Assembly (NCBI GenBank): GCA_017440085.1
Contig: JAFSHW010000038.1
Location: forward strand, 8,245-72,244
Reading direction: 5' to 3'
DNA length: 64,000 bases
Origin: Clostridia bacterium
GTDB lineage: Bacteria > Bacillota > Clostridia > Oscillospirales > UBA644
Shown: one piece after another, positions 18,064 through 57,964 of the stretch
How the letters are laid out: every line of letters begins with the position of its first letter
Position numbering within the stretch: the first letter of the stretch is position 1
Program-made: the position numbers and the translations under genes
The notes under the pieces: model-generated
Database searches by the model: none
Told to the model about the DNA's origin: nothing
The model's input: the letters and a program-made list of their open reading frames with translations, nothing else

Positions 18064-18170
18064 TTTCAAATCATCCTTTTCTATACACAATTTCGTTAAT
18101 ATACTATCAAAAAGTGCCTTCTACTTATTATAAATGGGCGCAGTCCGCCCAAGGGCACTTATACAGGGTA

Positions 18171-35166: not shown

Positions 35167-36807
35167 ATGAAAAATTTCATTGCAATAGTTCTTATACTTG
35201 CGGCAATTACGGTGATTTTAACAGCGTGTGGCAGTAGCACAAATATTAAGCTACCAAAATTTGCAGACGAACGAGGCTATTATTATTTCCCAAAGCCGGA
35301 AGAACCTGATTTCCTCTATACAATAGACAGATGGCAGCTTTCCAACCACGAAAGAATTCTTCTTGCTTCTATGCAGGGAATTACTGCCAAAGATAAACCT
35401 TGCATTTACGTTATGGAAAACGAAAACTACAAGCTATGGCTTGATGAAATGGTTAAAAACAACGGCATAAAAACTCAAGAGGAAAACGACGTTTACGCCC
35501 TGCTTAAAAAGGTTTCCGATTCAATAAAAGGCTATATTCTCTATGATTTGGCAGATAACACTTCATTGAACGTGGCAACCTCTTTGGCAGGAATAAACAG
35601 AGCGATTCTCGTTGATTACCATATTGAAGATACTATCAAAGAAATGGGCTTCAAATGCATTATGGACGTAAGAGGCCTCGACGACCAATGGCTTTACGAT
35701 AATTACGCAGACAAATTCGGTCAAGGTGAAAATCTCCTTAACAACACCATTATTCTTGAGCAGAGAGCCCTTGAAAACGACGACAGAAACTTCCTGCTCC
35801 GAGACTATGCTATATTCTGCAATATGGCTTGCTTCTACCAGAGCGACTCCCCGCTGAAAGACGCTTTTCTTGATAAACTTGAAGATAACAGCATTATTTT
35901 AGGCTGGGGCGACGGCGACAAGGTTACGGAAAGTGACCTTGGTTCAAGCTCAGCACGCCAAGGAGTTATGCAGGTAGCAAGCGACTGGCAGGCAAACCTT
36001 TCAGTTCTTTCAGCCCTTAAACCCAAAGAAGAAATAATCAAGCAAAAAACAAACACAAACCCCGAAACTCTGGAAACAGAAAACGTTCACTACGTTACTT
36101 TTATCTGGACAGACGGTGATAATATTCAATGGACCTCCGGCAGCTTTGCCAAGCACAACTCATATTGGGCTTCTGAATCAAGGGGCGAATGCAATATGGG
36201 CTGGGGCATAAATAATATGCTTTACGAAGCAGCACCTTCCACTATGGAATATTTCTACGAAACTGCCGCAAATAACGAAAACGGAAAGGACTACTTCGTA
36301 GTAGGACCTCATTTCGGGTACTCCACAGAATTTAAAGATACTCTTACGTCCTGGACCATTGATTTAAACGAGCTTATGGGAAAAACGGATTTAAAATACG
36401 TTCAGGTTATTGAGCTTGACACAATGAACGTCTTCCCCGAAGCCTTTGACGAATACACGGAGCACGATAATATTCACGGCCTTTTTTACCTTGATTATGA
36501 AAAATATAATAAAGAAGAAGGCAAAATAGTTTGGTCCAACGGTAAGCCCGTAGTTTCCGCAAAATACGCAATTTGGGACCCAAACCAAATGGAAAATGCA
36601 ACCCCTGAAGATTGCCTTGAAAAGCTGAATAACGCACCCGTTGATATTACTTCAGCAGATGGCTACACCTTCGTTACCATTCACGCTTGGAGTGGCTACA
36701 CAATGGACGACATAAGCAATATGATCGCAAAGCTTGACGCCCACGTGAAGGTGGTAACTCCCGATGAGTTTATGCAGCAGATAATTAAAAACGTAAAACA
36801 CGATTAA
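35167..36807 (+). CDS. secreted lipoprotein, possibly a GxGYxYP-family putative glycoside hydrolase
   Basis: Lipobox ILTAC. LLASMQGITAKDKPCIYV and NVATSLAGINRAILVD resemble conserved N-terminal blocks of that family as I recall them. Confidence 0.4.
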   Translation: MKNFIAIVLILAAITVILTACGSSTNIKLPKFADERGYYYFPKPEEPDFLYTIDRWQLSNHERILLASMQGITAKDKPCIYVMENENYKLWLDEMVKNNGIKTQEENDVYALLKKVSDSIKGYILYDLADNTSLNVATSLAGINRAILVDYHIEDTIKEMGFKCIMDVRGLDDQWLYDNYADKFGQGENLLNNTIILEQRALENDDRNFLLRDYAIFCNMACFYQSDSPLKDAFLDKLEDNSIILGWGDGDKVTESDLGSSSARQGVMQVASDWQANLSVLSALKPKEEIIKQKTNTNPETLETENVHYVTFIWTDGDNIQWTSGSFAKHNSYWASESRGECNMGWGINNMLYEAAPSTMEYFYETAANNENGKDYFVVGPHFGYSTEFKDTLTSWTIDLNELMGKTDLKYVQVIELDTMNVFPEAFDEYTEHDNIHGLFYLDYEKYNKEEGKIVWSNGKPVVSAKYAIWDPNQMENATPEDCLEKLNNAPVDITSADGYTFVTIHAWSGYTMDDISNMIAKLDAHVKVVTPDEFMQQIIKNVKHD

Positions 36808-44084: not shown

Positions 44085-44107
44085 GGTCGGCGGAAAAACC
44101 GCCGACC
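44085..44107 (-). terminator. rho-independent terminator ending the 12-kb ABC locus
   Basis: Stem ggtcggcgg / ccgccgacc with a 5-nt loop. A T-rich tract follows on the minus strand. Confidence 0.6.
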
Positions 44108-44132: not shown

Positions 44133-45125
44133 TTAACCAACAAGACCGCTTCGTTCGATACCTTGCACGAAATATCTCTGTGCAAAAAGGAAAACGATAA
44201 GAAGAGGAGCGATCATCAGCAAAGAGCCTGTATCAAGAAGAGTCTGCTGCTGAAGAACATCTTCTACACCCTTAACAACGTTAAAGAGCGTATTTGAGAG
44301 AATCGTCATATTAGGCATAAGCATGCTGTTGTAGGTTGTATCCGTCCACTGCCAAGTGAAGGAGAAGAGGAATACTGTAATCATCATATTGAATGCGTTA
44401 GGAAGCATAATCAATACGAAAGTTTTGAAAGGACCTGCACCGTCAATATAAGCGGACTGCTCGAGTTCCTTAGGCATACCTCTGAAGAACTGTCTCATCA
44501 AGTAGATGTAAAGACCGTTTTTCAGACCAAGACCTGTAGCAGACATAATAGCCAAGGGCCAAAGTGTGTTAACAAGGTCAAGACCGCCGAAGAAGTATCT
44601 GAATGTGCTGTAAAGAGGAAGCATAATCGTCTGAGGTGGAATAATAAGAGACACGATAACGATTACGAAGAGAAGATTGCTGCCTTTGAATTTAAATCTT
44701 GCGAAACCGTAACCTGCAAGACAGCTTACGATAAGCTGGAAGATTGATACGACAAGCGACAACCAAATAGAGTTAATCAAAGCCGTCCAGTAATCCATAT
44801 TCATTACAGCTCTCTGAATGAAGTATGTTGAACCCTCACGAGGGAAAAACATAACCGTTTTGTCGGTAAGGTCGTTTGTAGACATAAAGGAAACGATGAT
44901 TTTAACCACGAAGGGGTAAAGAATCATAAAGCTGATACCGATGATGAGAACTGCTCTTACGATTGCCCAGCAAAATCTGCCGAAACCTGCAAGGGTAAGG
45001 TTCTTTCTCTTCCATCTATCCCAGTCAATTCCTTCAAATTTCTTAGGAGCTAATTTTTCAAGAAGCTTTTCAATAAAGTTTCTGTTATCTACGTGGACTT
45101 CGGACTCAAAATTTATCTGTTTCAT
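44133..45125 (-). CDS. carbohydrate ABC transporter permease (MalG-type), second pair
   Basis: 6-TM layout. EAA loop EQSAYIDGAGPFKTFVLIMLP. Confidence 0.8.
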   Translation of the reverse strand: MKQINFESEVHVDNRNFIEKLLEKLAPKKFEGIDWDRWKRKNLTLAGFGRFCWAIVRAVLIIGISFMILYPFVVKIIVSFMSTNDLTDKTVMFFPREGSTYFIQRAVMNMDYWTALINSIWLSLVVSIFQLIVSCLAGYGFARFKFKGSNLLFVIVIVSLIIPPQTIMLPLYSTFRYFFGGLDLVNTLWPLAIMSATGLGLKNGLYIYLMRQFFRGMPKELEQSAYIDGAGPFKTFVLIMLPNAFNMMITVFLFSFTWQWTDTTYNSMLMPNMTILSNTLFNVVKGVEDVLQQQTLLDTGSLLMIAPLLIVFLFAQRYFVQGIERSGLVG

Positions 45126-45139
45126 TTAAACTTTCCTCC

Positions 45140-46084
45140 TTAATCCTGGTAAATAACCATTCTGTTAATAATCAAGAATACAACTCCGACGAATACCAAT
45201 ACTACAGCCGTGTAAACCCAAGAAAGCGATGACGCTACGGCGTAGGTACTTGGGCTAGCCAATCTTTGCGCGATGAATTTTACCGCAAGGTTATCAGCTT
45301 TAAGGAACTGGTCGATAACTGTATAAATCGCATTAACGAGAATGAGGGGGCTGACGTAGGGGAAGGAAATTTTCCAGAAAACTTCCCAACCCGTTGCGCC
45401 TTCAACCTGTGCTGCTTCGTACATACTTGTGGAAATACCCTGAAGACCGGAAAGGAATACCAACATCTGAACACCGGAAGAGGTTATGATGGAGTAAAGA
45501 CTTTCGATGGCTGTAAGCACGATATTTGCAAGGTCTGCATTGTTAAGAGTCTGAAGAATCAGATTTGCGAATGATGCGTAGTTAAAGATGTTTGACGCAC
45601 CGGAAGCGGAACCGATTTCCATTTTTTCCGCAGACTGATAAACGTCCATCATAGAGCTCATATTTTCTACTTCTGCGATAATACCTGTGGAGATAATAAC
45701 GGGAACGAAGAAGATAACACGGGCAGCAGTCTTACCAAGGAAGTTCTGGTTAAGAATGTTAGCCATAAAGAATGCGAAAATAAGAATAATGGGAATCTGA
45801 ATGATAATACCTGAGGTGGATTCGATAACCGTTCTCAAAAAGTTTTCTCCGCCGAACAAAGCTTCGTAGTAGTTTTGCCAGCCGGCAAAGGTTGTTTTAA
45901 AGCCTTCGCTCGTAACTTCGATACTACTGAATGAATATTTGAGAGACTGAATAACAGCGGGAAGATAAATGCAAGCAAAACCTATGATGATAGGGAGAAC
46001 GAATATGTAGCCGTAAAGATTTTGTTTTCTTTCAAGAGAAAATCTTTGTCTCTTAGGCATTTTTTCAATTGTTACTTTACTCAT
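45140..46084 (-). CDS. sugar ABC transporter permease (MalF-type), second pair
   Basis: EAA loop YEAAQVEGATGWEVFWKISFP. There is a 4-nt ATGA overlap with the upstream gene. Confidence 0.8.
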   Translation of the reverse strand: MSKVTIEKMPKRQRFSLERKQNLYGYIFVLPIIIGFACIYLPAVIQSLKYSFSSIEVTSEGFKTTFAGWQNYYEALFGGENFLRTVIESTSGIIIQIPIILIFAFFMANILNQNFLGKTAARVIFFVPVIISTGIIAEVENMSSMMDVYQSAEKMEIGSASGASNIFNYASFANLILQTLNNADLANIVLTAIESLYSIITSSGVQMLVFLSGLQGISTSMYEAAQVEGATGWEVFWKISFPYVSPLILVNAIYTVIDQFLKADNLAVKFIAQRLASPSTYAVASSLSWVYTAVVLVFVGVVFLIINRMVIYQD

Positions 46085-48993
46085 TTTACATTCACCTCCA
46101 CATAACCTTTGGCAGATACTTGTGTACCGTCTTCAAGTTCCACGTCGAAATCGTTGTAGTTAACGATGAACTTAACGGAATTACCGTAAGTTGTAGCGTA
46201 AACTCCGCCAATATCAACCTTTTCAACGGAACCTACGTGGTAAGCTTCTAAGATCTCGTGGTTTGTAATGGGTTTGTTTGCCACTTTATTCATAAGATCG
46301 GAAACTTCTGCGTAGAGAGTAGCTGCTGTTTCAAGTGAGTTCTTATAGTTTACGGAATACCAATCCTGGAATACGTAATCAGTATTGCTGAGGATTCCGT
46401 TATCTGCACCCATCCAACGGAAGTATACGCCGCTACCTGTTTCAAGAAGCTGGAGAACTGCAGTTTCGTAGTCGCCGGACTTATTGAGAGGTTCGCTTGC
46501 GTAGTCTACGTAACCGTGAAGAACCATCTGAATGAAGGGGATTGCTTCTGTTGTAGACATATATTGGCTGGAGCCAACGGGAACGTTAAGAAGGTGGGTT
46601 GCATATTTCCAGGTATAGTCGTTACCTGTTTCAAAAATCATATCATAGCCGTCGAAAGTTTCGATAGCGCTGATGTGATGGTCAAGAGCCTGAGTACGGT
46701 TGATAATTCTACCGATTTTGTAGTTAGTATCAATAACTGAACCGATACCGCTGAGAGAAACCTGCTTGTTAGAAACAAGTTCTTCAAGGTCAGCCTTGAA
46801 GCCTGCTGCCATATCGGGAATCTTATCTGCAGAAACTACAGTCAGGTCAAAACCTGATTTCCAAGTTTCGCCTGTGGAGTAAAGTCTGCCGAGATTCTGA
46901 GCAACTGTCATATCAAGACGTCTTGCAGCATCCTGAGAGAAATTCATAGAGTCAAAAGCTTTATCTTTTACAACGTAAATGAGATTAGCGTCAGGATAGA
47001 AGCTGATTTCTTTACTCTGGAGGTATTCAGCAGCATCTTTGAGCTCTGAAGCGGAACCGAGAGCTGATACAAAGTCGACTTTATCGTAAATTGTATTGTA
47101 GTAGCCTTCGTTTGCCCAATAGAGGTATCTGAAATTGATATTTTCTACGCCTTTTTCAAGGAGAGCATCGGCGATTTCCTTAATCTGATTGTAAGTTGTA
47201 AGAGCTACAACGTGGTCTACGGGAATACCAACAACGGATTCTGTCTTATTGATAGCTCCGAGAAGGTCTACGTAGAAGGGAACTTCGGAATCAGACTTAA
47301 CAGTAGCGGGAAGAGCTTCTTTTTCGATGAGGTAATCTCTGTAGAAGTTAGCATAGTCAGCGTGTGTCCAGTCGCCTTCGTTGAAGAAGTAATCAACTGT
47401 GAATACTGCAATGTTTTCTTCTTTGGAAAGTACAGCACCGGAGCTGGAAGTACTGCTTGAAGAAGAACCGCCTATTTCAGTAGAAGAGGTTCCCTGACCG
47501 CCTGAATAAGTAAGGTAGCTTCTTTCAGAGTAAACGAAATCGTAGTTGATAGAAGTACCGGGGTTGTTGGAGGTATTGGAAGGTCTTGCAGTCGCGAAAG
47601 CCTGAGAGCCGCCGTTGGAAAGAATTGCAACCATACCACCCAATGAAGAACGGTCAAATGAAAGGAAAGGAGTTACAACCTGCTCTACGGGAGATTCCTG
47701 AACAGAAAGCTGGAAGGAGTCATCCAAGCCGTATACACGAGCTGTGAATGCGTCAGTTGTAAGGTTTCCTTTAGCGGGCATTATAGCGCCGGAACCGTCG
47801 GGAATGATAACGTAAGGTGTGATGTTATACATCTTGTTCGCCGTACCCGTAACCTTTTCGCCCTGTTCACCAACCATAACAGAACCGAAAGCTCTGTAAA
47901 GAGTAATCTTATAAAGCTTCTGTTTTTCGGGGGCAAGGATAAGATTTGAGTCAACAGTTACGCTGAGACCTTCTTCTGTAAGAGTAAGGTCAACGGGAAT
48001 TGTGTACAAAACTGCTCTGGAGGGACCGCTGTATTCAACTGCGTCCATTTCCTTTTTAAGCATCTCAGGAGTAAATCCTGCTGCTTCCATAGCTTCTTTA
48101 ACAAGAGTTTTCTGACGGTTGTTAAGATTTCTTGATATTCGCATGGGGAACATCTGAATTGTAGGATAGTCCTTAGCGTAACGCTCAATTTCTTCGAGCT
48201 CAAGCTCGTCAGGTTGTGTTTCTTTATAACAAACACCCAAGTTGGAGATGTGCTTTGCGCCACCGTCAACTTTTTCAAGACGACCGATTACCCAATCCCA
48301 AGTATCTATTGTAAGAACGGGAGGAACGAGGTCTGCATTTGCGTCGTTACCGATTGTGTAAATTACACGAATCGTATCATCATCCATCTTAACGATTTTC
48401 AATCTATTGACGTTGATACAATGATCCATTGCGTTAAATTCATAACGCTTGTTTGCAATATCGTAAGCTTCAACCGCAATGGGAGAAACTATGGGGTCAG
48501 TAACGTCTTCTTTAGCATTACCGTAGTTTGTGAATGCACTGGAAGTATCTGCAGGGTTAGAGTGGTAGATATTACCGGTTCTCTTATCCAAAACTGCGAT
48601 AGCACTCATATTTTCTTCGCCCTCTTCACGCATAAGGGTCATATAAAGTGAGTAATTATCGTTATCAAGGAGAAGAACCATATCGTCAAGACCCATTCTG
48701 AGACCGTTCATTACGGAACCCTGAGGACCGACTTCCTTATCTTTGTAGTCTTCGTGGACTACCCATTCGTGAGTAGTTTTAACGACTTCAAAGCCGTCTT
48801 CAATTACGGTAGTTTCCGTTGTAACATTTTCGGCAAGCATTTCACCGTCGCCGATAAGGCTGAGAATGTGAGCTTCTCTTTCTTCGTCTGTAATATTACT
48901 TGATTTATTATCCGTAGCTTTGCAGGAAGAGAAAGAAATGAGTGACGTGAGCATAATAGAAAGCAGCAGCACGTAAGAAATTATTTTTTTCAT
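46081..48993 (-). CDS. large (about 970 aa) extracytoplasmic lipoprotein of unknown function (DUF5696-like, from memory)
   Basis: ATG at 48993 gives MKKIISYVLLLSIMLTSLISFSSC (lipobox), and AGGAGG lies 12 nt upstream. The ORF track starts at 49017. No catalytic motif recognised by eye. Confidence 0.5.
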   Translation of the reverse strand: MKKIISYVLLLSIMLTSLISFSSCKATDNKSSNITDEEREAHILSLIGDGEMLAENVTTETTVIEDGFEVVKTTHEWVVHEDYKDKEVGPQGSVMNGLRMGLDDMVLLLDNDNYSLYMTLMREEGEENMSAIAVLDKRTGNIYHSNPADTSSAFTNYGNAKEDVTDPIVSPIAVEAYDIANKRYEFNAMDHCINVNRLKIVKMDDDTIRVIYTIGNDANADLVPPVLTIDTWDWVIGRLEKVDGGAKHISNLGVCYKETQPDELELEEIERYAKDYPTIQMFPMRISRNLNNRQKTLVKEAMEAAGFTPEMLKKEMDAVEYSGPSRAVLYTIPVDLTLTEEGLSVTVDSNLILAPEKQKLYKITLYRAFGSVMVGEQGEKVTGTANKMYNITPYVIIPDGSGAIMPAKGNLTTDAFTARVYGLDDSFQLSVQESPVEQVVTPFLSFDRSSLGGMVAILSNGGSQAFATARPSNTSNNPGTSINYDFVYSERSYLTYSGGQGTSSTEIGGSSSSSTSSSGAVLSKEENIAVFTVDYFFNEGDWTHADYANFYRDYLIEKEALPATVKSDSEVPFYVDLLGAINKTESVVGIPVDHVVALTTYNQIKEIADALLEKGVENINFRYLYWANEGYYNTIYDKVDFVSALGSASELKDAAEYLQSKEISFYPDANLIYVVKDKAFDSMNFSQDAARRLDMTVAQNLGRLYSTGETWKSGFDLTVVSADKIPDMAAGFKADLEELVSNKQVSLSGIGSVIDTNYKIGRIINRTQALDHHISAIETFDGYDMIFETGNDYTWKYATHLLNVPVGSSQYMSTTEAIPFIQMVLHGYVDYASEPLNKSGDYETAVLQLLETGSGVYFRWMGADNGILSNTDYVFQDWYSVNYKNSLETAATLYAEVSDLMNKVANKPITNHEILEAYHVGSVEKVDIGGVYATTYGNSVKFIVNYNDFDVELEDGTQVSAKGYVEVNVK

Positions 48994-49009
48994 TTTAAAC
49001 CACGGCCTC

Positions 49010-49693
49010 CTATTCATTAAGTCTGAAGCTTATTTCCGTATACAAGGATGAGATAAAACCAACAACCTGTGATACAAGGTAGAAAACAAGCACTGCAATA
49101 AAGATAATTACCAAAATACCTACAATTGAAAGAATTGCGGTAGCGATAGCTTTTGAAACTGAATACTGGTGTGTAACCATCATTCCGAGGAACACCATAC
49201 CGTAGCACCAAACAAAGCTGAAGCCAACTATGAATACGTAAATGCTTTCTTCTTCCAATGATACGAAGTTACTGATAGGTACCAAGAGGAAGTTGCAGAT
49301 AGTCATTGGCAACGTTGCAAAAGCTGTTGCGCAGAAGATGTCTTTAAGGCTTCCGTCACCGTCCATAAGAGAGGTGAAGCACCAGTTTGCGATGGTGAAC
49401 AAAAGGAATGGAGCTACTGCTTTGAAGACTTCCATAAATACGTTCAAATAGAGCTGTTCGCCGGTACTTTCAGTAAACAAGTAACCAGTGAGCTGTCTCT
49501 TAACGATGGAAGAAAATGCAAGCATAACCAAGAGGAAGATTGAACCGGAAACAGTTCTTCTTTTAGGGTCGTTTTTCAAATCGAAAAATCCGTCAATGGG
49601 GTGAGCAAGAATGTAAAAAGCGTATTTAAGACGTTTAAACATTTCTACTGTGCCCGCGCCGAATTTTTTAAGGCCGGAACTTATTGACTTCAT
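49010..49693 (-). CDS. Yip1-domain integral membrane protein
   Basis: HPIDGFFDLK followed by five TM helices. The start overlaps the stop of the NHL gene by 1 nt (TAATG). Confidence 0.6.
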   Translation of the reverse strand: MKSISSGLKKFGAGTVEMFKRLKYAFYILAHPIDGFFDLKNDPKRRTVSGSIFLLVMLAFSSIVKRQLTGYLFTESTGEQLYLNVFMEVFKAVAPFLLFTIANWCFTSLMDGDGSLKDIFCATAFATLPMTICNFLLVPISNFVSLEEESIYVFIVGFSFVWCYGMVFLGMMVTHQYSVSKAIATAILSIVGILVIIFIAVLVFYLVSQVVGFISSLYTEISFRLNE

Positions 49694-51321
49694 TATTTAG
49701 CACCCCTTTCACCATTCTTCTTTTTCTTGACTTTGGAAACTACGTAGAGAGCAACTATGCCAACCACTACTACGCCGATACCTGCAACGATGAAACCAAA
49801 GTTTTCGCTGAGGCTATCTTTTCTGAGTTCTTTGAAGGTCTTGGAATAGTAGGTTTTTTCGTTTGAATATTTGAAATATTCAAGAGCCTGTTCGTAACCT
49901 TCAAGGTCGGATTCTGCCATAGAAATTCTCATCTGAGCTTTTCCCAAGCCTGTGTATGCAATGTAGAGGTTAGAGTTGTAGTCAAGTACCTTCTGCCATT
50001 CTACGAGAGCTTCTTCATATCTGCCGTTTGCACTTGCGCTTGTGGCTTTATTAATTGTCCTTGCGTATTCCGTAATTTTGTAAACTGTGATAGTATCGTT
50101 ACCTGTATCGGAAACCACAATATCTTCACCGAAGAGGGCGATGGAAGCGGCTGTTTTAATACGGCCGAACTGGTTAGAGGAAGCGCCGCCTGCGATGTAG
50201 AGGAGGTTACCGTCTATATCGTAAGTGAAGAATCTACCCGTTTTAGCATCAAGGATTGAGTATCTGCCGGAATTTTCTTCAACTGCTACGTCAACCATCT
50301 GTGGAGGATTGAACATTGTAACTTCAAGGTCACCGATAGGTGAATACATACCGTTTCTTCTGAGAACGTCAGTACCGGAAGGACTGAGTTTCTGAACGGG
50401 AGCACCTGCACCGGAAACGCCTGTCGCGCCGTCGTCTGTAGTAACGTAATTTGATACCATAGCTTCAGCGTCAATTGTTGCAATAGTTGAATAAATGAAG
50501 CCTTTGCTGTCAATACAAATATTAGAGAATTCAGTAGGAACGTTTCTGATAAGAGTCTTTTTCTGTTCTTCGGAAGCGATAAGTCTCCAGAACCATTCGG
50601 TAGCATCGAAAGAAACTGCAGGTGCACCGAAGAAAGTACGGAATTCGCCGTCAGAAGAAATTTCAAGGAGACCTCTGTTTACGGAGTATGCAACTACCTG
50701 CATAGCGCCTGTTCTGTCAACTGTAAGTTTCAAGGGTTTGAAAACGTAGTTGTCAAGAACTGAGGGGCTGATTCCCTGGTAAACGTTGTATACAAGACCG
50801 TCTTCATCACAAATTACGATTCTGCGGTTTTCCGTATCGCAAACGTAAATCATACCGTCATTTGTAACAAAAATACCTTCAGGTTTATTTAAGATATTTT
50901 TGTTAAGGGTAGCAACGATGGGATCTGCCTTAGGGTCTCCGTTACCGTCGATTACCCATTGGTAAAGTTCGGGAATTTTATATTCCGCGGAATCTTTAAG
51001 ATTTTTAACTGTTTTGAGAAGATTGTAGTCTTCATCAAGAATAAGGATTTGGCTGTTGCCCTTATCAACTACATAGATTTTACCGTTTCTTGCGAAAAGG
51101 TCAACGGGTTCAAAGTTGTTCAAAATGCCGAAATCATCTTTTGAAAAAACCTTTTCCGCTTTGTAAGCTACGGGAGCCTTAACAGAAGCACCGTAATAGT
51201 CATATATGTAGTTATCTGTGATTTCGGTATTCATAGGAAGGGCAAAAGAGGTCACAGCTGTGGAAGCAAGCATAACGACGAGCATTACCAAGCAAAGCAA
51301 TGATTTAACGTGATTTTTCAT
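49693..51321 (-). CDS. NHL-repeat beta-propeller protein with TPR-like segment and C-terminal TM anchor
   Basis: Signal peptide. NHL-like blades (PEGIFVTNDGMIYVCDTENRRIVICDEDG; NGKIYVVDKGNSQILILD; DIVVSDTGNDTITVY). TPR-like RYEEALVEWQKVLDYNSN. TM helix plus a KKKK tail. Confidence 0.7.
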   Translation of the reverse strand: MKNHVKSLLCLVMLVVMLASTAVTSFALPMNTEITDNYIYDYYGASVKAPVAYKAEKVFSKDDFGILNNFEPVDLFARNGKIYVVDKGNSQILILDEDYNLLKTVKNLKDSAEYKIPELYQWVIDGNGDPKADPIVATLNKNILNKPEGIFVTNDGMIYVCDTENRRIVICDEDGLVYNVYQGISPSVLDNYVFKPLKLTVDRTGAMQVVAYSVNRGLLEISSDGEFRTFFGAPAVSFDATEWFWRLIASEEQKKTLIRNVPTEFSNICIDSKGFIYSTIATIDAEAMVSNYVTTDDGATGVSGAGAPVQKLSPSGTDVLRRNGMYSPIGDLEVTMFNPPQMVDVAVEENSGRYSILDAKTGRFFTYDIDGNLLYIAGGASSNQFGRIKTAASIALFGEDIVVSDTGNDTITVYKITEYARTINKATSASANGRYEEALVEWQKVLDYNSNLYIAYTGLGKAQMRISMAESDLEGYEQALEYFKYSNEKTYYSKTFKELRKDSLSENFGFIVAGIGVVVVGIVALYVVSKVKKKKNGERGAK

Positions 51322-51339: not shown

Positions 51340-52314
51340 TTAGTCTTTCATACCGGATGTAGCCATTGTTTCGAGAATGTTACTCTGTGTAATAAGGAAG
51401 GTTATTACAGGAACAATCATCATTACTACTGAAATTGCCATCGAAACGCCCTGACGAGCAATACCTGCGGCAGCAATCTGGCCAAGTGCGTAGTTAAGAG
51501 TTTTAAGTTCTTCTCTGTAAATATAAATCGTGGAGCCCATATTCCAATATTCCTGAACTGCGAAAACGATAAGTGTCATCCACGCGGGTTTCAAGTTAGG
51601 CATAACGATCTGGAAGAAGAGTCTGAATTCGCCTGTACCGTCGATTCGAGCAGCTTCAAGAACTGCATCGGGGAACTGGTCTACGAAGTTTTTAACGAGG
51701 TAAACTGCCATTGAAGAACCGATAGCAGGAACGAGAACAGACCAGTAAGTATCAATCCAACCGAAAGCAGCCATCGTCATATAGTTAGCGATACCTGCTG
51801 CAGGGGCTGCAAACATAAGTGAGAATGAGATAACACTCATAATCATATTCTTACCGGGGAACTGTCTCTTTGAAAGGGGGTACGAAGCCATCGTACCGAA
51901 GATAACTCTCAAGGTTGTACCAACGGCTGTGATAAATACCGTATTAAACAAGTATTTAGACATAGGAACCAAGGAGTTCGACATAATGTTAATCAAGTCA
52001 ACATAGTTCTTTCCTGTGGGATTCTGAACTATCAAGGTTGGGGGGAATAGGAACAACTCATACAAAGGTTTGAGTGAGTTACTGATAGCGAAGATAAGGG
52101 GGAATGCCATGAACACACCGCCTATGAGGAGGAACAGGAACATAAACAAGTCGCCGCCGAAGCTTCTGTTAACTCTTGACTTAAAGAGTTTCTTTTTCTT
52201 ATAGTGAATTTCTCGTCCTTCAGCGTCGTACTTTGGTCTTTTCTTAAATATACCGACCATTTCCTGCTCTTGAGCAACGCCGTCAACGATTATAACGTTT
52301 TTCTTTTTAGCCAT
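51340..52314 (-). CDS. carbohydrate ABC transporter permease (MalG-type), first pair
   Basis: EAA loop LEAARIDGTGEFRLFFQIVMP. AGGAGGGG RBS. Confidence 0.8.
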   Translation of the reverse strand: MAKKKNVIIVDGVAQEQEMVGIFKKRPKYDAEGREIHYKKKKLFKSRVNRSFGGDLFMFLFLLIGGVFMAFPLIFAISNSLKPLYELFLFPPTLIVQNPTGKNYVDLINIMSNSLVPMSKYLFNTVFITAVGTTLRVIFGTMASYPLSKRQFPGKNMIMSVISFSLMFAAPAAGIANYMTMAAFGWIDTYWSVLVPAIGSSMAVYLVKNFVDQFPDAVLEAARIDGTGEFRLFFQIVMPNLKPAWMTLIVFAVQEYWNMGSTIYIYREELKTLNYALGQIAAAGIARQGVSMAISVVMMIVPVITFLITQSNILETMATSGMKD

Positions 52315-52328
52315 AAATTATCCCCTCC

Positions 52329-53252
52329 TTACTTACCAATTCTGCCAAGCACGAACTGGAATACTTTATTGGCGGAAATAGAGATTACGAAGAGAATCGT
52401 AGCAATCGCGCAGGCATAACCCATTTCAAAACGAGTGCCGCCGTAGTCATCCAAGTGGTGCATAATTGTGTGAAGTGCGTAGCCGTTTGTGGGGAAACCG
52501 AAAACAGCTGTGATAACTGAACCGATACCAAAAGAACCGGAAACGTTAAGAACCGCACCGAAGAGCAACTGACCTCTCATTGAAGGGAGAGTGATGAAGT
52601 AAAGCTCCTGCCATCTGTTCTTAATACCGTCAACAGCGCCTGCTTCGTAAAGTGTGCGGTCAACAGTCTGAAGACCTGCGATAAACGTAAGGAACGTGGT
52701 ACCGAGAGCCTGCCAAAGAACGATGAATACGCAAACTACGAACATCCAAGTTTCATCAGTAAGCCAAATGATAGGTTCGGAGATGATACCGAGGTTCAAA
52801 AGAGCACCGTTGATGTAGCCGTAGCTGTCGCCGGAGAACATAAGCTGCCAAACGTAAGCGAAACCGCCTGAAAGTGAGGGAGCGTAGAAAAGAAGTGTCA
52901 AGAAAGCACGTGGCTTCGGTGGTACTTCGTTAATGAGCCAAGCGAATCCGAAACACATAATATAGGAAAGAGGACCTGTAATAAGTGCCAAAATAAACGT
53001 ATTCTGCAAAGCCAAGGAGAAAATGTCGTCGTTAAGGAACAACTTCTGGTAGTTTGCTATCCCAACAAAGTCAGGGAATTCAAGCATATTAAAGTTTGTA
53101 AGACTGATAAACAAAGACGTAAATACGGGAAGGATTGTAAATATAGTAAACACTACAAGGAACGGACCAAGGAATACTACAACGTCCAAGTTTTCGAATC
53201 TTTTTGAGCTTTTGATTTTATTGACTTTCATTGTGTCATTTTTACTTTTCAT
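52329..53252 (-). CDS. sugar ABC transporter permease (MalF-type), first pair
   Basis: EAA loop YEAGAVDGIKNRWQELYFITLP. GGAGGAGGGG RBS. Confidence 0.8.
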   Translation of the reverse strand: MKSKNDTMKVNKIKSSKRFENLDVVVFLGPFLVVFTIFTILPVFTSLFISLTNFNMLEFPDFVGIANYQKLFLNDDIFSLALQNTFILALITGPLSYIMCFGFAWLINEVPPKPRAFLTLLFYAPSLSGGFAYVWQLMFSGDSYGYINGALLNLGIISEPIIWLTDETWMFVVCVFIVLWQALGTTFLTFIAGLQTVDRTLYEAGAVDGIKNRWQELYFITLPSMRGQLLFGAVLNVSGSFGIGSVITAVFGFPTNGYALHTIMHHLDDYGGTRFEMGYACAIATILFVISISANKVFQFVLGRIGK

Positions 53253-53272: not shown

Positions 53273-56158
53273 TTAGTCTGTGATGTAAGGAAGTCCAAGT
53301 TCTGCACGCTTGTATTCAAGTTCGTCGTTGATTGCGGAGATGTAGTCGAGAATTGTTTCACGAACATCCTTGTTGTCAACAACAACGTCGTTGAATGCGA
53401 AAGTCTGGTAACGTGTTACCTGATAGCTTCCGATATACTGCGGGTAACCAACAGCAACGTCAAGCTGAGCGAGGAGAGCTTCAAGTTCTGTTGCTTTCCA
53501 AGGCATTGCTGACATAGCTTCGATGTTAGCAGTGTTGTAACGAGCTGCAGTACCAAGAATAGATTCGATTTCTTTACCGAATTCAATCTGAGCGTCTGCA
53601 CCTGTCCACCATTTCAAGAATTCCCAAGCAGAATCGGGATCTTTAGCTCCGGACATCATTACGCTTCCTACGTAGTTAGCAATAACAGTGTTGTCGATAG
53701 TTCCATCTTCTTTTTCAACACCGGGAATGGTTGTGAAGGACCAGAGACCTTTAATTTCAGGAGCAAATACGGAAATCTGGTTGTAGAATTCGTAACCCTG
53801 AACACCGATAGGCATTTCGTTAAATCTGAAACGGTTGGCGAAGTTAAAGGAAATAGGAATCTTATAGCTTGTGTACAAGTCTGTATGCTGGATAAAGGTC
53901 TGAATTGAAAGCTCGTCGTCCAAGTTAACCTGAGAACCGCCGTTCTTATAGAGAGTACCGCCGTTCTGGTAAAGGAGAGTCAGGTAATCCGGTGGAGCAA
54001 AGTCCATATACTGCTTCTGGAGAGTAGCAATAATGTCGTAAGCTTCATCCCACGTTTTGGGAAGTTCAAGACCAAGGTCTGTCATAGTATCTTCGCGGTA
54101 GAAGAGAACGCTGTATGTAACAGTTTCGGGAAGGGCATAGTAGTGAGTGCCTTCTTCGCCGCCCCAATCTACGAATACTGATTCAAAAGCGGATTTGTGG
54201 AAGGATTTCTGAACTTCTTTGAAATCGCTGAATGTATCGAGAGGATAGAGAGCATTACGAGCTGCGTAGTTAACGATGTTTTCAACAGTAAGGTTCATTG
54301 CAACGTCAGGGCCAACGCCTGCAAGAACTGAAGGAAGAAGTGATGCTGCCGGAACGAGCTGAAGGTCAACGTCGATTTCATAATCAGGAATAAAGCTTCT
54401 GTCTACGATCTGTCTGAGGATCTGAGCCTGGTCGCGGGCACTTGTCATCCATACTGTAGTCTTCTTATCGTAAGAAACTTCTTTTACAGCAGAGATAGCG
54501 TTAACGTCGGTAAAGAAGGATGAGAAGAACATTGAAACCTGATGGCCCAAGTTAGCAAAGAATCCTTTTTCAGCCTTGGGAGTTGCAAAGTCTGGTTCAG
54601 CCACGAGAATGTAGTCCATTTCAAGGGGCTGTTCTCTTGCTGTGATTACCCAAGAACCCAAAGTACCGATGTTATTTTTAAATGTAGCATAATATGTAGC
54701 TATCTTTTCGGGGTCTTCGTGCATCTTATAAAGATGTTCGATGATTGTGTAAAGCTGAGCTGTCTGAGAACCTGTCTCGCCGAGGAGGTTGAGAAGCTCT
54801 GTATATATTTTGGTAAGGGTGTCAGCCTGTGCTTTAAGGTCCGCAATAACTTCGGGGATTTCGTTTTCAAAATCGTAGTCACGATACTGGTCGGGAGTCT
54901 GACCCATAAGCATTACAAACTTACGGTTGTCTATATTCAACTTTTCAATAACTGCTTCAACAGCATTGATAATATCAGACATATCGCCAAGAACTGCTTT
55001 AACTCTGAGAGTGTTTACACCTGCATTAAAATGGAAGAGTACGGGTTCGTTGTATTCGTCCATAGGTGTAACCATCTGCCAGTCAGAATCATAGTTGAAG
55101 CGAACGTTGGATGCTACTTCGTAGGGAAGTTCGCCGTTAACGGAAAATTCACGGCTGGAGAATGCACCACTGTTTACATTCTGTCTTGCACGGATAATAA
55201 GTTTATAGTAACCGTCTGCAGGAACATCTACTTCGTATTCAACCCACTGACCTGCCGTCTTCCAAGTAGCGGTACCGTTGGTACTGCCGAGGATGTTTAT
55301 TTTTGTAACACCTGCGGAAGCGGGGCTAGTAGCAGCGGAAGCCTTATCGGTACCGCCGAACAATGTGGAGTCTGATTTTGCAGAAGGACGTTCAGCTTCG
55401 ACTTGAGCAATAAGCTGGTCGCCGCCGAAGTTCATACCATCATATTCAGAGTATTCAGAACTACCGGAGAGCCACATTGCGGAAATAGCAAGAGGTTCTC
55501 TTACAGACTGAATTGTGATTGTGTTTTCACCCTTCTTCAAATAGAACTGAAGAGCGCCGGAATAGCTACCGGTTGAATCCTGGAAGAAAGCATCTTCAAT
55601 CCAAACGGGTTCTTCAATCTGAGAAGGTCTGATCTGGTTGCCTGAAGCGTCTTCGGTAAAATAGTTCTCTATATCTGAACGATCGACTACGTTATCAACG
55701 TAACGACGGTCCAAAGAAGCAGCGTTTGCTTCTGTATAGGGAACTTCACCGTTAACGTAAATAGCTCTTTCAATAGCAGCACCTTTACCCTCAATGGGAT
55801 AATAGTCTGCGTAGATTGAATAGAGACCTTCACTGGGAACATTAACTGTGTAAGTTACGGAGCTCGCCTCTGTTGTAATAAGGCAGTTAGCAACGCCGTC
55901 AACGGTACCTGTGGTAACGTCGGCAGTAGCGTCGGTATAACCGTGAATATCGATTTCAACCTTATCTTTAGCTGTAGTAGCTCTGAGGTAAGTTTGTAAA
56001 TATTCACCGTAAGAACCTTCCTTATAAACAGGAACGAAAGCGGTTAACGCGGATTCTTCCGTAATAGATGACATCGCTGAAAAACCTACGGCAAACAACT
56101 GAATAATCATTGCCACCATAAGTATAACAGCCGTACATTTACTCTTGCGAATCTGCAC
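53273..56158 (-). CDS. 961-aa extracellular solute-binding protein with two N-terminal CBM-like beta-sandwich modules and an uncleaved-looking signal anchor
   Basis: GTG start with GGAAGGTG RBS. Paired modules: YTVNVPSEGLYSIYADYYPIEGKGAAIERAIYVNGEVPY and EYEVDVPADGYYKLIIRARQNVNSGAFSSREFSVNGELPY. The C-terminal roughly 450 aa resemble a family-1 SBP. Confidence 0.7.
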   Translation of the reverse strand: MQIRKSKCTAVILMVAMIIQLFAVGFSAMSSITEESALTAFVPVYKEGSYGEYLQTYLRATTAKDKVEIDIHGYTDATADVTTGTVDGVANCLITTEASSVTYTVNVPSEGLYSIYADYYPIEGKGAAIERAIYVNGEVPYTEANAASLDRRYVDNVVDRSDIENYFTEDASGNQIRPSQIEEPVWIEDAFFQDSTGSYSGALQFYLKKGENTITIQSVREPLAISAMWLSGSSEYSEYDGMNFGGDQLIAQVEAERPSAKSDSTLFGGTDKASAATSPASAGVTKINILGSTNGTATWKTAGQWVEYEVDVPADGYYKLIIRARQNVNSGAFSSREFSVNGELPYEVASNVRFNYDSDWQMVTPMDEYNEPVLFHFNAGVNTLRVKAVLGDMSDIINAVEAVIEKLNIDNRKFVMLMGQTPDQYRDYDFENEIPEVIADLKAQADTLTKIYTELLNLLGETGSQTAQLYTIIEHLYKMHEDPEKIATYYATFKNNIGTLGSWVITAREQPLEMDYILVAEPDFATPKAEKGFFANLGHQVSMFFSSFFTDVNAISAVKEVSYDKKTTVWMTSARDQAQILRQIVDRSFIPDYEIDVDLQLVPAASLLPSVLAGVGPDVAMNLTVENIVNYAARNALYPLDTFSDFKEVQKSFHKSAFESVFVDWGGEEGTHYYALPETVTYSVLFYREDTMTDLGLELPKTWDEAYDIIATLQKQYMDFAPPDYLTLLYQNGGTLYKNGGSQVNLDDELSIQTFIQHTDLYTSYKIPISFNFANRFRFNEMPIGVQGYEFYNQISVFAPEIKGLWSFTTIPGVEKEDGTIDNTVIANYVGSVMMSGAKDPDSAWEFLKWWTGADAQIEFGKEIESILGTAARYNTANIEAMSAMPWKATELEALLAQLDVAVGYPQYIGSYQVTRYQTFAFNDVVVDNKDVRETILDYISAINDELEYKRAELGLPYITD

Positions 56159-56257: not shown

Positions 56258-56286
56258 ATTATAATACTTTTCCACTCAAATGTCAA
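56258..56286 (-). promoter_or_regulatory. sigma-A type promoter of the ABC locus
   Basis: On the minus strand: TTGACA (56286-56281), 17 nt spacer, TATAAT (56263-56258). Leader of about 100 nt. Confidence 0.55.
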
Positions 56287-56587
56287 GCAGAAGTTCTATT
56301 TTTTCCGAATTTAAAATGTCACACTTTTTGAGTATTTTGGGCAGTTTAACCAAAAAATTATTCACAAACAACATAAAATTCTAAGCTTTTCCACATCAAA
56401 AATGAAGAAGTGTTATGCATACCTTACAAAACCATTTCCATATATGGACTTCGAGACCATTTTTGGCGAGATTTTGGCTATATATAGTATCACTACTATG
56501 TTTTTGACAAAAGAGTGTTGTGCAAATCTACCAAAGTTTCGCGCTTTTTTAATTATGCGCAATTCAAATGGTATTTTTTACACTTTT

Positions 56588-57964
56588 TCAACATTTATCT
56601 CCGTATTTTTCGGTAATAAGCTCTGCCGCAAGGTAAATATTTCCGCATCCGAGAGTGATAAAAAGGTCTCCGGGCTGAGCCATTTCCTTGACTCTTTGTG
56701 CAATATGCTCAAAATCCGGCTGATATTCCCCGTTTGGAAGCAATTCAACCAAATCCTCTGCAAAGACGTTATATTCATCGTTGGTTTCACGTGCGGCGTA
56801 AATGGGAGAAACAATTACGTGGTCAACCTGAGAAAGGACTTGAGCAAATTCATTCATAAGCATTTTCGTTCTGGAGAAGGTATGGGGCTGATGAATCGCA
56901 ATCACTCGCTTGAAGCCCAACTCCCTTGCAGTTTTAAAGGTCACGTCATATGCGTCGGGGTGATGTGCGTAATCATCTGCAATTACGGCACCGTTCACGG
57001 TGCAATGATATTCAAATCTGCGCTTAGTTCCTGCAAAATCGTGAAGTCCTTTGCTTACAGCTTCGGGGGAAACCCCCAATGCTATTGCAGCTGCGGCGGC
57101 AGCCAATGCGTTTTTCACGTTATGAGCGCCGGGAACGGAAAGGGAAACGGTGCAAAATTTTTCACCTTCGTACATAATTGTAAAATTGTACAATCCGTTT
57201 ACCGAAGAAATGTCATAAGCTGTTACCGAACCTTTTACAATTCCAAATGAAACTTTTTTACCCTGGAAATCGTCTATCATTTTGAGAGAGTTTTCACACT
57301 CGGAGTTGTAGACCACAGTGCCACCTTCTTTGGTGTTACGCAAATACTTTTTAAAGGAACCGATAAGATTATCGAGAGTTTTGAAGTATTCCATATGGTC
57401 TTTGGAAATATTCAGAATGACGGAAACGAAAGGTCTGAAGTTAAGGAATGAATCCTTATATTCACAGCTTTCAAAAACGCAGAATTTTTCTTCTTTACCT
57501 ATTATATAGGAAGAATTCAGCTGTTTTACGCTTCCGCCGATGATTGCGCTGTAATCGAAACCGCTTGCGGCAAGGATTGAAGCAATCATACCTGAAGTTG
57601 TTGTTTTGCCGTGTGTGCCTGCGATTCCAACGGGGAAATCATATCCGTCAAGAATCATACCGAGAAGCTCAGCCCTTCTGTGGACGGGAATTCCCGCCTG
57701 CAAAGCGTAAGCAATTTCGGAGTTTGATTCGGAAACAGCATCTGTTCTGATTATAACTTGAGGGTTTTCGTTTTTCACGTTATCCTCAGAATGCCCGATA
57801 TAAACTTTTATGCCAAGGGATTCAAGGTGCGCCGTGGTAGCAGAGCTCTGCATATCAGAGCCGCTTACGGAATAGCCCCTGTTAAAGAGAATTTCGGCAA
57901 GACTGCTCATAGAAGAGCCTCCGATTCCTGCCAGATAAACTTTTTTTACACCGTCAAGAGTCAC
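56588..57964 (-). CDS. murC: UDP-N-acetylmuramate--L-alanine ligase
   Basis: GIGGSSMSSLAE, GTHGKTTTSGM and the Mur ligase C-terminal domain. 458 aa. Confidence 0.9.
   Translation of the reverse strand: MTLDGVKKVYLAGIGGSSMSSLAEILFNRGYSVSGSDMQSSATTAHLESLGIKVYIGHSEDNVKNENPQVIIRTDAVSESNSEIAYALQAGIPVHRRAELLGMILDGYDFPVGIAGTHGKTTTSGMIASILAASGFDYSAIIGGSVKQLNSSYIIGKEEKFCVFESCEYKDSFLNFRPFVSVILNISKDHMEYFKTLDNLIGSFKKYLRNTKEGGTVVYNSECENSLKMIDDFQGKKVSFGIVKGSVTAYDISSVNGLYNFTIMYEGEKFCTVSLSVPGAHNVKNALAAAAAAIALGVSPEAVSKGLHDFAGTKRRFEYHCTVNGAVIADDYAHHPDAYDVTFKTARELGFKRVIAIHQPHTFSRTKMLMNEFAQVLSQVDHVIVSPIYAARETNDEYNVFAEDLVELLPNGEYQPDFEHIAQRVKEMAQPGDLFITLGCGNIYLAAELITEKYGDKC

Follow-up and report, generated by a model that had tools for sequence, protein, structure and literature searches.

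Here we analyse a 64,000-nucleotide stretch of the genome of a gut Clostridia bacterium (assembly GCA_017440085.1, contig JAFSHW010000038.1; hereafter the window) and, within it, three tightly coupled minus-strand genes that lie between two pairs of ATP-binding cassette (ABC) permease genes and encode an NHL/TPR protein, a Yip1-domain membrane protein and a large DUF5696 lipoprotein. Our findings show that this triad is part of an eight-gene cassette, a double importer of the CUT1 type with three obligatory accessory proteins, one of which has the fold of glycoside hydrolase (GH) family 129 and lacks its nucleophile. On balance, with a confidence slightly above even, we favour a reading in which the triad supplies fixed accessory subunits to a conserved, two-translocator ABC cassette for glycan uptake in Bacillota, DUF5696 being a non-catalytic GH129-fold subunit and the NHL/TPR and Yip1 proteins a scaffold. 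CUT1 ABC importers are the main oligosaccharide uptake route in Gram-positive gut and soil bacteria, and their textbook unit consists of one binding protein, two permeases and one ATPase; to this the cassette adds a second permease pair and three further proteins of the surface or membrane, all obligatory. Should the triad prove to belong structurally to the importer, our picture of how monoderm bacteria capture glycans would have to change. Bacteria would then also offer a clear case in which a glycosidase fold was recruited for a transporter subunit without catalytic function, and DUF5696 and its partners would be directly testable targets in fibre-degrading gut Clostridia. Neither DUF5696 nor PF18952, nor any account of this gene set, turned up in a search of the literature; the cassette is widespread and apparently unstudied.

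The eight-gene cassette and its conservation

The cassette forms a single minus-strand unit, running from a promoter that agrees with the consensus at 12 of 12 positions (TTGACA-17 nt-TATAAT, 56258..56286) to a GC-rich hairpin just past the last gene (9-bp stem, then TGTGGTTTT; 44085..44107), which is likely the terminator of the transcript. Between the two lie, in this order, the genes for a giant solute-binding protein (SBP; 53273..56158), permease A1 (52329..53252), permease A2 (51340..52314), the NHL/TPR protein (49693..51321), the Yip1 protein (49010..49693), DUF5696 (46081..49017), permease B1 (45140..46084) and permease B2 (44133..45125); the cassette contains no ATPase gene. The open reading frames (ORFs) place the triad where an earlier note, made from the letters of this DNA, had located it, and the junctions confirm its claim that the three genes are translationally coupled to one another and to the permease gene that follows. 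The NHL stop overlaps the Yip1 ATG (TAATG), the Yip1 stop TAG sits within an AGGAGG Shine-Dalgarno sequence, and the DUF5696 stop overlaps the ATG of permease B1 (ATGA); permease A2 and the NHL gene are separated by 18 nt, which contain AAGGAG. Two in-frame ATGs are available to DUF5696, one at 49017 (8-nt overlap, 978 aa) and one at 48993, 12 nt past the Shine-Dalgarno sequence. The latter is probably the true start, and its product of 970 aa has the length of about 970 aa first given for the lipoprotein. Signal or anchor helices, five hydrophobic segments in Yip1 and a lipobox bear out, moreover, that all three products are extracytoplasmic or membrane proteins.

Conservation of this arrangement extends well beyond the window. 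Among 86 loci fetched through DUF5696 relatives, from metagenome-assembled genomes (MAGs) of gut Clostridia to Paenibacillus and Cohnella, gene order does not vary wherever the contig leaves the locus uncut, and all eight genes, unchanged in order, accompany DUF5696 relatives at 37%, 26%, 24% and 24% identity. Scanning a single genome for each species gave 578 loci, of which 80 were fetched; these 80 include members of the Lachnospiraceae, Paenibacillus and Cohnella besides MAGs of Oscillospiraceae and other Clostridia. Of 300 genomes sampled from the class, 88 have a DUF5696 match above the Pfam cut-off and 66 the cassette-type NHL protein, 64 of the latter together with DUF5696; where the two matches were compared, they share a contig and lie about 1.4-3.3 kb apart. 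In the two genomes with NHL and no DUF5696, the single NHL match falls within about 1.3 kb of the contig start, where the rest of the cassette has probably been cut off. Co-occurrence beyond this genome, on which the earlier note had made its case depend, is therefore strict in both directions. Some genomes carry multiple copies, with up to four DUF5696 and NHL matches.

The composition of the cassette is that of a CUT1 importer (TC 3.A.1.1), with a cluster-type SBP and two BPD_transp_1 permeases bearing EAA loops. All four permeases are BPD_transp_1 proteins matching PF00528, with EAA-type coupling motifs (LYEAGAVDG in A1, VLEAARIDG in A2, MYEAAQVEG in B1 and SAYIDGAG in B2), and thus both pairs should bind an ABC ATPase. 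The SBP_bac_1 protein, the MalF/MalG-like EAA permease pairs and, in the relatives searched, an ATPase encoded elsewhere are likewise found in Firmicutes CUT1 importers of the MalEFGK2 type; unlike usual CUT1 systems, on the other hand, the cassette has two permease pairs per operon, an SBP of about 1000 aa usually without lipid anchor, and three obligatory extra membrane or surface proteins. To our knowledge, no described CUT1 system has three such extra proteins. The giant SBP of the window (961 aa) has a signal-peptide-like N-terminus without lipobox, SBP_bac_1 at residues 591-857 (E 9.8e-17) and weak CBM6/35-like matches in its N-terminal half, and its closest solved relative is the sophorose-binding protein Lin1841. 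Lipoboxes are lacking from the giant SBPs of 58 of 65 cassettes (the window and L004-L086), with N-termini that resemble signal peptides, often with an AXA-like site; since these proteins are mostly without lipid anchor, it is possible that a membrane partner retains them.

Firmicutes CUT1 systems commonly share one MsmX/MsmK-type ATPase encoded elsewhere. In agreement, exactly one OB_MalK-type ATPase, outside the cassette, was found in each of the seven near-complete cassette-bearing relatives searched (7/7). In one of them, G256, the MalK-type ATPase match (69258-69452) shares contig 6 with the cassette DUF5696 (82686-84545), about 13 kb away; we estimate its distance upstream of the cassette itself at only a few kb. 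The other six relatives carry their ATPase and their cassette on different contigs. The window's own genome assembly comprises 760 kb and is 62% complete. It holds seven BPD_transp_1 matches, four of them the cassette permeases and three judged, by ORF size and score alone, not to be of the sugar-importer (CUT1) type; the cassette's four are the only CUT1-type permeases recognised in the assembled 62% of the genome. Elsewhere in it we found four orphan conventional SBP lipoproteins of CUT1 type, none with an adjacent permease: a tandem trio on contig 18 (L107:5991-10323, minus strand; 483, 458 and 460 aa, 32-53% mutual identity), flanked by comEC and an ABC exporter, and a fourth on contig 12 (L108:784-2199, minus strand; 471 aa). 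Their best matches among the fetched loci are small SBPs directly flanking cassettes in other genomes, where a small SBP is the upstream neighbour in 22 of 65 cases and the downstream one in 9 of 97. In this small genome, oligosaccharide import probably falls mainly to the cassette, which may be the principal sugar importer and would also be served by the four unlinked binding lipoproteins.

Fold and catalytic positions of DUF5696

The lipoprotein matches Pfam DUF5696 (PF18952) over residues 322-972 (E 2.1e-128, 430 bits against a cut-off of 25.6), and its N-terminus (...LTSLISFSSC) agrees with the PROSITE lipobox rule. An AlphaFold model built from a 40-sequence alignment (predicted local distance difference test, pLDDT, 83; predicted template modelling score, pTM, 0.82) lays the chain out as an N-terminal beta-sandwich with a helical insert, a disordered Ser/Gly-rich loop (residues 500-527), a (beta/alpha)8 barrel and a C-terminal beta-sandwich. 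Foldseek against the Protein Data Bank (PDB) places ZgGH129/DagB first (5opq; E 1.4e-27, target-normalised template modelling (TM) score 0.65) and NagBb next (5wzr; E 6.5e-21, 0.70), and these GH129-type enzymes are followed by GH101, then by GH36, GH31 and GH13. The model has the three-domain fold of GH129. At the sequence level, the DUF5696 family profile finds 5opq among PDB sequences at E 5.5e-8, and hhalign aligns DUF5696 with nine PF11308 (Glyco_hydro_129) proteins, taken from genomes of the same class, at 99.3% probability (E 1.5e-19). A Pfam scan (E <= 0.01) gave the window protein no direct PF11308 match, and as a single sequence it found only chance matches in the PDB (IcmQ, E 0.04; DehI, 2.3), so that GH129 is reached there by the family profile and not by single-sequence search. 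NCBIfam returned no match for DUF5696 or Yip1, and in the long DUF5696 variants (1020-1255 aa) Pfam shows no further domain that would suggest a carbohydrate-binding module or an anchor. Model and profiles together identify DUF5696 as a three-domain homologue of GH129/GH101 glycosidases, and the guess of a TIM-barrel, GH-like fold in the earlier note was correct. The three-domain build is common to GH129 and GH129-like enzymes (the alpha-N-acetylgalactosaminidase NagBb, 5wzn; the 3,6-anhydro-D-galactosidase ZgGH129/DagB, 5opq) and GH101; DUF5696 further shares a PFxQMVLHGY-type motif near the barrel end with GH129 and, with part of the GH129 set, a GND motif after the acid/base position.

Catalytic residues are another matter. 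In NagBb the nucleophile is D435, within AYLDV, and the acid/base E478, within SSEEVSDW, as located by a GH129 homologue aligned to NagBb; hhalign and MAFFT map the two onto S756/G757 and E796 of the window protein, with a one-residue ambiguity, and the mapped positions fall at the ends of predicted barrel strands. Asp486 of DagB is equivalent to NagBb Asp435 and is the catalytic residue common to both enzymes (PMC5698469). Barrel strand 4 of GH129 carries this nucleophile at its end; the window protein has S756/G757 there instead. Across 144 cassette-type sequences column 756 is mainly Gly (67), Arg (28), Ser (22), Ala (7) or Leu (7), and column 757 Asp (44), Thr (28), Ser (17), Asn (16) or Gly (13). 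The window keeps E796 at the acid/base position, which in GH129 lies at the end of the next barrel strand, a column that holds D, S, E, T or Q, is acidic in 66 of the 144 and is Gln in relatives about 70% identical; both canonical positions are acidic in 18. Within the clade of at least 60% identity around the window, the pairs at the nucleophile and acid/base positions read GD/E, GA/Q, GD/Q, GA/E and SG/E. The nucleophile position alternates among D, A, G and L in close relatives, and relatives that share at least 68% identity still differ at the acid/base position (E/Q/T/S/D) and at the Asp that follows it by four residues (D/A/S). Such switching within so close a clade is the pattern of relaxed constraint, and across the cassette-type family the catalytic positions are unconstrained. 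A set of other polar residues is invariant in cassette-type proteins (D407, D432, R774, N799, H834, N845 and E859, with Y801 also kept), and D407 and D432 are borne by two invariant loops, PDGSG and YGxD, gained in these proteins. The closest database relative of the window protein (P0001; 90% identical, 907 aa) is gapped over window residues 793-802, the block that holds the acid/base position, and this gap may be an assembly or gene-call artefact.

Unlike GH129, DUF5696 is without the nucleophile Asp, and its acid/base and neighbouring Asp are unconstrained; it has about 300 extra N-terminal residues, including the helical insert, it has the cassette-specific PDGSG and YGxD loops, and it is membrane-anchored, its gene always lying between those for Yip1 and an ABC permease pair. 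A class of short DUF5696-like proteins (L097-L106, same class of genomes; about 565-610 aa, PF18952 at about 190-612, E about 1e-40) differs in turn from the cassette type. These share the PF18952 family and the H834, N845 and E859 motifs with it, yet they have both carboxylates, lack the N-terminal extension and the YGxD loop, and do not occur in cassettes. All 10 that were aligned keep Asp and Glu at the two catalytic positions; of the PF11308 proteins aligned alongside, eight of nine keep both residues, Gln and Lys replacing them in the other. The short forms lack a signal peptide, usually stand beside an AraC regulator and sometimes beside a major facilitator superfamily transporter, and are probably uncharacterised cytoplasmic GH129-like glycosidases. 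From its catalytic positions, the DUF5696 of the window appears to be a GH129-derived pseudo-glycosidase. The earlier note had seen in the lipoprotein the obvious place for a hidden enzyme or a second binding component: it does not look like a canonical enzyme, with the nucleophile Asp missing and the position flipping in close relatives, and a binding component is possible and close to the reading that we prefer. That note had also held that assignment to a known GH family with a described partner set would undo its proposal; the fold was indeed assigned with confidence to GH129/GH101, but the protein did not pass the catalytic test and no described partner set came with it.

The NHL/TPR-Yip1 unit and component co-variation

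The NHL/TPR protein (542 aa) matches Pfam NHL (PF01436, E 2.7e-11) and TPR_11, and in NCBIfam has sub-threshold NHL-type matches only. Its model (pLDDT 85.9) consists of an N-terminal helix (2-25), a beta-rich propeller region (about 38-416), TPR-like helices (418-506) and a C-terminal helix (508-540), the transmembrane anchor, with a KKKK tail after it. The best Foldseek matches are TRIM71, TRIM2, Brat and PknD (target-normalised TM score 0.73-0.78); these are six-bladed NHL propellers of the binding type, a blade number that belongs to the matched structures. No enzyme-like signature was seen in this protein. The Yip1 protein (227 aa) matches PF04893 over residues 27-199 (E 8.5e-17, 62 bits against a cut-off of 28.6) and has five hydrophobic segments in its sequence. 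Its N-terminus is K/R-rich and would therefore be cytoplasmic, a topology continuous with the out-to-in C-terminal anchor of the NHL protein. In 27 related loci one ORF of about 690-800 aa encodes NHL and Yip1 fused together, Rosetta-stone evidence for one working unit.

The statement in the earlier note that Yip1-domain proteins have no defined role in bacteria was too strong. In Bacillus subtilis the Yip1-family protein YknW is an accessory that modulates assembly of the ABC transporter YknXYZ (PMC4887032). The likeness to the cassette lies in a Yip1-family protein encoded with an ABC transporter complex whose assembly it modulates; yet YknXYZ is a MacB-type exporter with a membrane-fusion protein, whereas the partners in the cassette are type I importer permeases, and the cassette Yip1, unlike YknW, is joined to an NHL/TPR ectodomain.

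At every evolutionary distance DUF5696 is the fastest-evolving component of the cassette. Close relatives retain 69% identity in DUF5696, 84% in the SBP and 82-92% in the permeases, and distant ones 26% in DUF5696 versus 37-54%; of the two permease pairs, B is much less conserved than A. Over 68 cassettes, partial correlations from mirror trees separate two blocks of components. One comprises the SBP, A1 and A2 (0.65-0.77) and the other B1 and B2 (0.62) with DUF5696 (DUF5696-B1 0.44, DUF5696-Yip1 0.29), which Yip1 joins at 0.44 (with B1) and 0.40. When pairs were permuted, 0 of 999 permutations reached the observed value for SBP-A1, DUF5696-B1, DUF5696-B2, DUF5696-Yip1 and Yip1-B1. The partial correlation of DUF5696 with the SBP, A1 or A2 is about 0, and NHL is weakly positive with every other component.

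Working models of the cassette and its surroundings

In the reading that we favour, DUF5696 would work without cutting sugar, either providing a platform at the surface to which glycans bind or assisting the B translocator as an ancillary ectodomain, and the NHL/TPR-Yip1 unit would be the membrane scaffold that holds the complex together; this unit may also retain the giant SBP, which has no lipid anchor. The A pair would work with the giant SBP, the orphan SBPs would feed one or both permease pairs, and a shared MsmK/MalK-type ATPase encoded elsewhere would power both. The closest functional analogy, not a homology, is offered by the SLC3 chains 4F2hc and rBAT, in which a membrane-anchored ectodomain with a TIM-barrel glycosidase fold is an ancillary transporter subunit; 4F2hc is without catalytic residues. 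The SLC3 chains differ in being eukaryotic, with a GH13 and not a GH129 fold, in their disulfide link to an SLC7 secondary transporter and in having nothing to do with sugar uptake. Their ectodomains have been termed 'fake or orphan alpha-glucosidases' (PMC8537225). A more ambitious version, which we put forward tentatively and regard as possible rather than probable, takes all eight proteins as one glycan-import machine of monoderm bacteria in which DUF5696 docks on the B translocator, as a receptor or an ancillary ectodomain without catalysis, and the NHL/TPR-Yip1 unit bridges both translocators and retains the giant SBP. Such a machine would do for Gram-positive bacteria what the Sus-type apparatus does in surface capture, and would parallel, in bacteria, the SLC3/SLC7 pairing of a dead glycosidase with a transporter.

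Several observations weigh against the accessory-subunit reading. The window's own assembly yielded no MalK-type ATPase, a negative that its 62% completeness makes uninformative; members with acids at both canonical positions do exist, and the invariant polar residues, D407 and D432 being cassette-specific, might build a new active site. In the window, neither a glycosidase nor a regulator adjoins the cassette. The mirror-tree blocks could, in part, reflect operon linkage and not physical contact; however, Yip1 correlates better with the non-adjacent B1 than with the adjacent, often fused NHL. Some simpler accounts were rejected. Chance juxtaposition is ruled out by an order fixed over phylum-level distances, by the NHL-Yip1 fusion and by the two-way co-occurrence of the families, and a pair of unrelated importers with three passengers is ruled out by the fixed order, the fusion and the co-occurrence. 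Nor does DUF5696 stand in literally for a Venus-flytrap SBP, as its fold is of the rigid three-domain glycosidase type; conventional small SBPs, beside cassettes elsewhere and as orphans here, also disfavour such a substitution.

Among the rivals that had to be weighed, the most serious, though we think it unlikely, is that DUF5696 does have enzymatic activity, its catalytic centre having moved or being of a non-canonical kind, and that it trims or debranches oligosaccharides at the mouth of the B translocator. Its candidate centre would lie in the cassette-specific N-domain loops with D407 and D432, or at D849/E859. The former would resemble the arrangement in DagB, where Asp202 of the N-domain, contributed by the second monomer, belongs to the catalytic machinery (PMC5698469). 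The conserved barrel and the residues kept at its C-terminal face (N636, R774, N799, Y801, H834, N845, D849 and E859), the gain of two invariant Asp in N-domain loops that are absent from the short and GH129 forms, and the retention of E796 in the window all fit such an enzyme. Yet the nucleophile Asp, the sole catalytic residue common to NagBb and DagB (PMC5698469), is gone, and neither the acid/base position nor the Asp four residues on is constrained. Moreover, cassettes in other genomes are flanked by GH113, GH26, GH43, GH127, GH38, GH4, GH3, LacI and AraC genes, a sugar context that speaks for glycan uptake, and the invariant residues remain unchanged beside mannan-type GH26/GH113, GH43, GH127 and GH38, a poor fit with a sugar-specific -1 subsite.

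An alternative centred on the propeller would make the triad a sensing or regulatory module, in which NHL senses an extracellular ligand in the manner of PknD and gates or stabilises the transporters via Yip1. The extracellular sensor domain of Mycobacterium tuberculosis PknD is among the structural matches of NHL, NHL co-varies weakly with every other component, and the cassette has a perfect consensus promoter and encodes no regulator. We nonetheless consider this module quite improbable: Pfam and NCBIfam find no kinase, helix-turn-helix or other signalling output domain in the triad proteins, and the coupling within the triad and to permease B1, together with the fixed position between permease genes, points to structural subunits. 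Still less credible, in our judgement, is that the cassette works for the envelope of the cell itself, for instance in recycling or otherwise handling glycans of the wall or capsule, and not for nutrient uptake. The flanks in the window's clade do accord with this, being genes of housekeeping or envelope function (Mur ligase, sortase-like and pur genes) and not glycosidases, but plant-glycan enzymes and LacI/AraC regulators stand beside the cassette in Paenibacillus, Cohnella and Lachnospiraceae, and multiple copies per genome fit substrate-specialised uptake systems.

In the window, a Mur ligase gene lies upstream of the cassette and UPF0029 and purF/M/N downstream; with such neighbours, the substrate is not readable from local context. 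A Gram-positive polysaccharide utilisation locus (gpPUL), in which transporter genes are accompanied by at least one glycoside hydrolase gene and a regulator, is therefore not what the window presents. The Mur ligase gene (56588-57964, minus strand) is overlapped in antisense by a 282-aa plus-strand ORF (56402-57250) without Pfam match, probably a shadow ORF and not a gene. About 7 kb from the cassette, a putative glycoside hydrolase of the GxGYxYP family (35167-36807, plus strand) has all four Pfam sub-domains and is the sole GH-like gene noticed among the annotated ORFs of the window. Farther off, a 3546-aa ORF (7450-18090, minus strand) carries 18 FctA/Spy0128-type isopeptide domains, DUF7601 and a weak VWA match, and looks like a giant Gram-positive pilus or adhesin-like surface protein.

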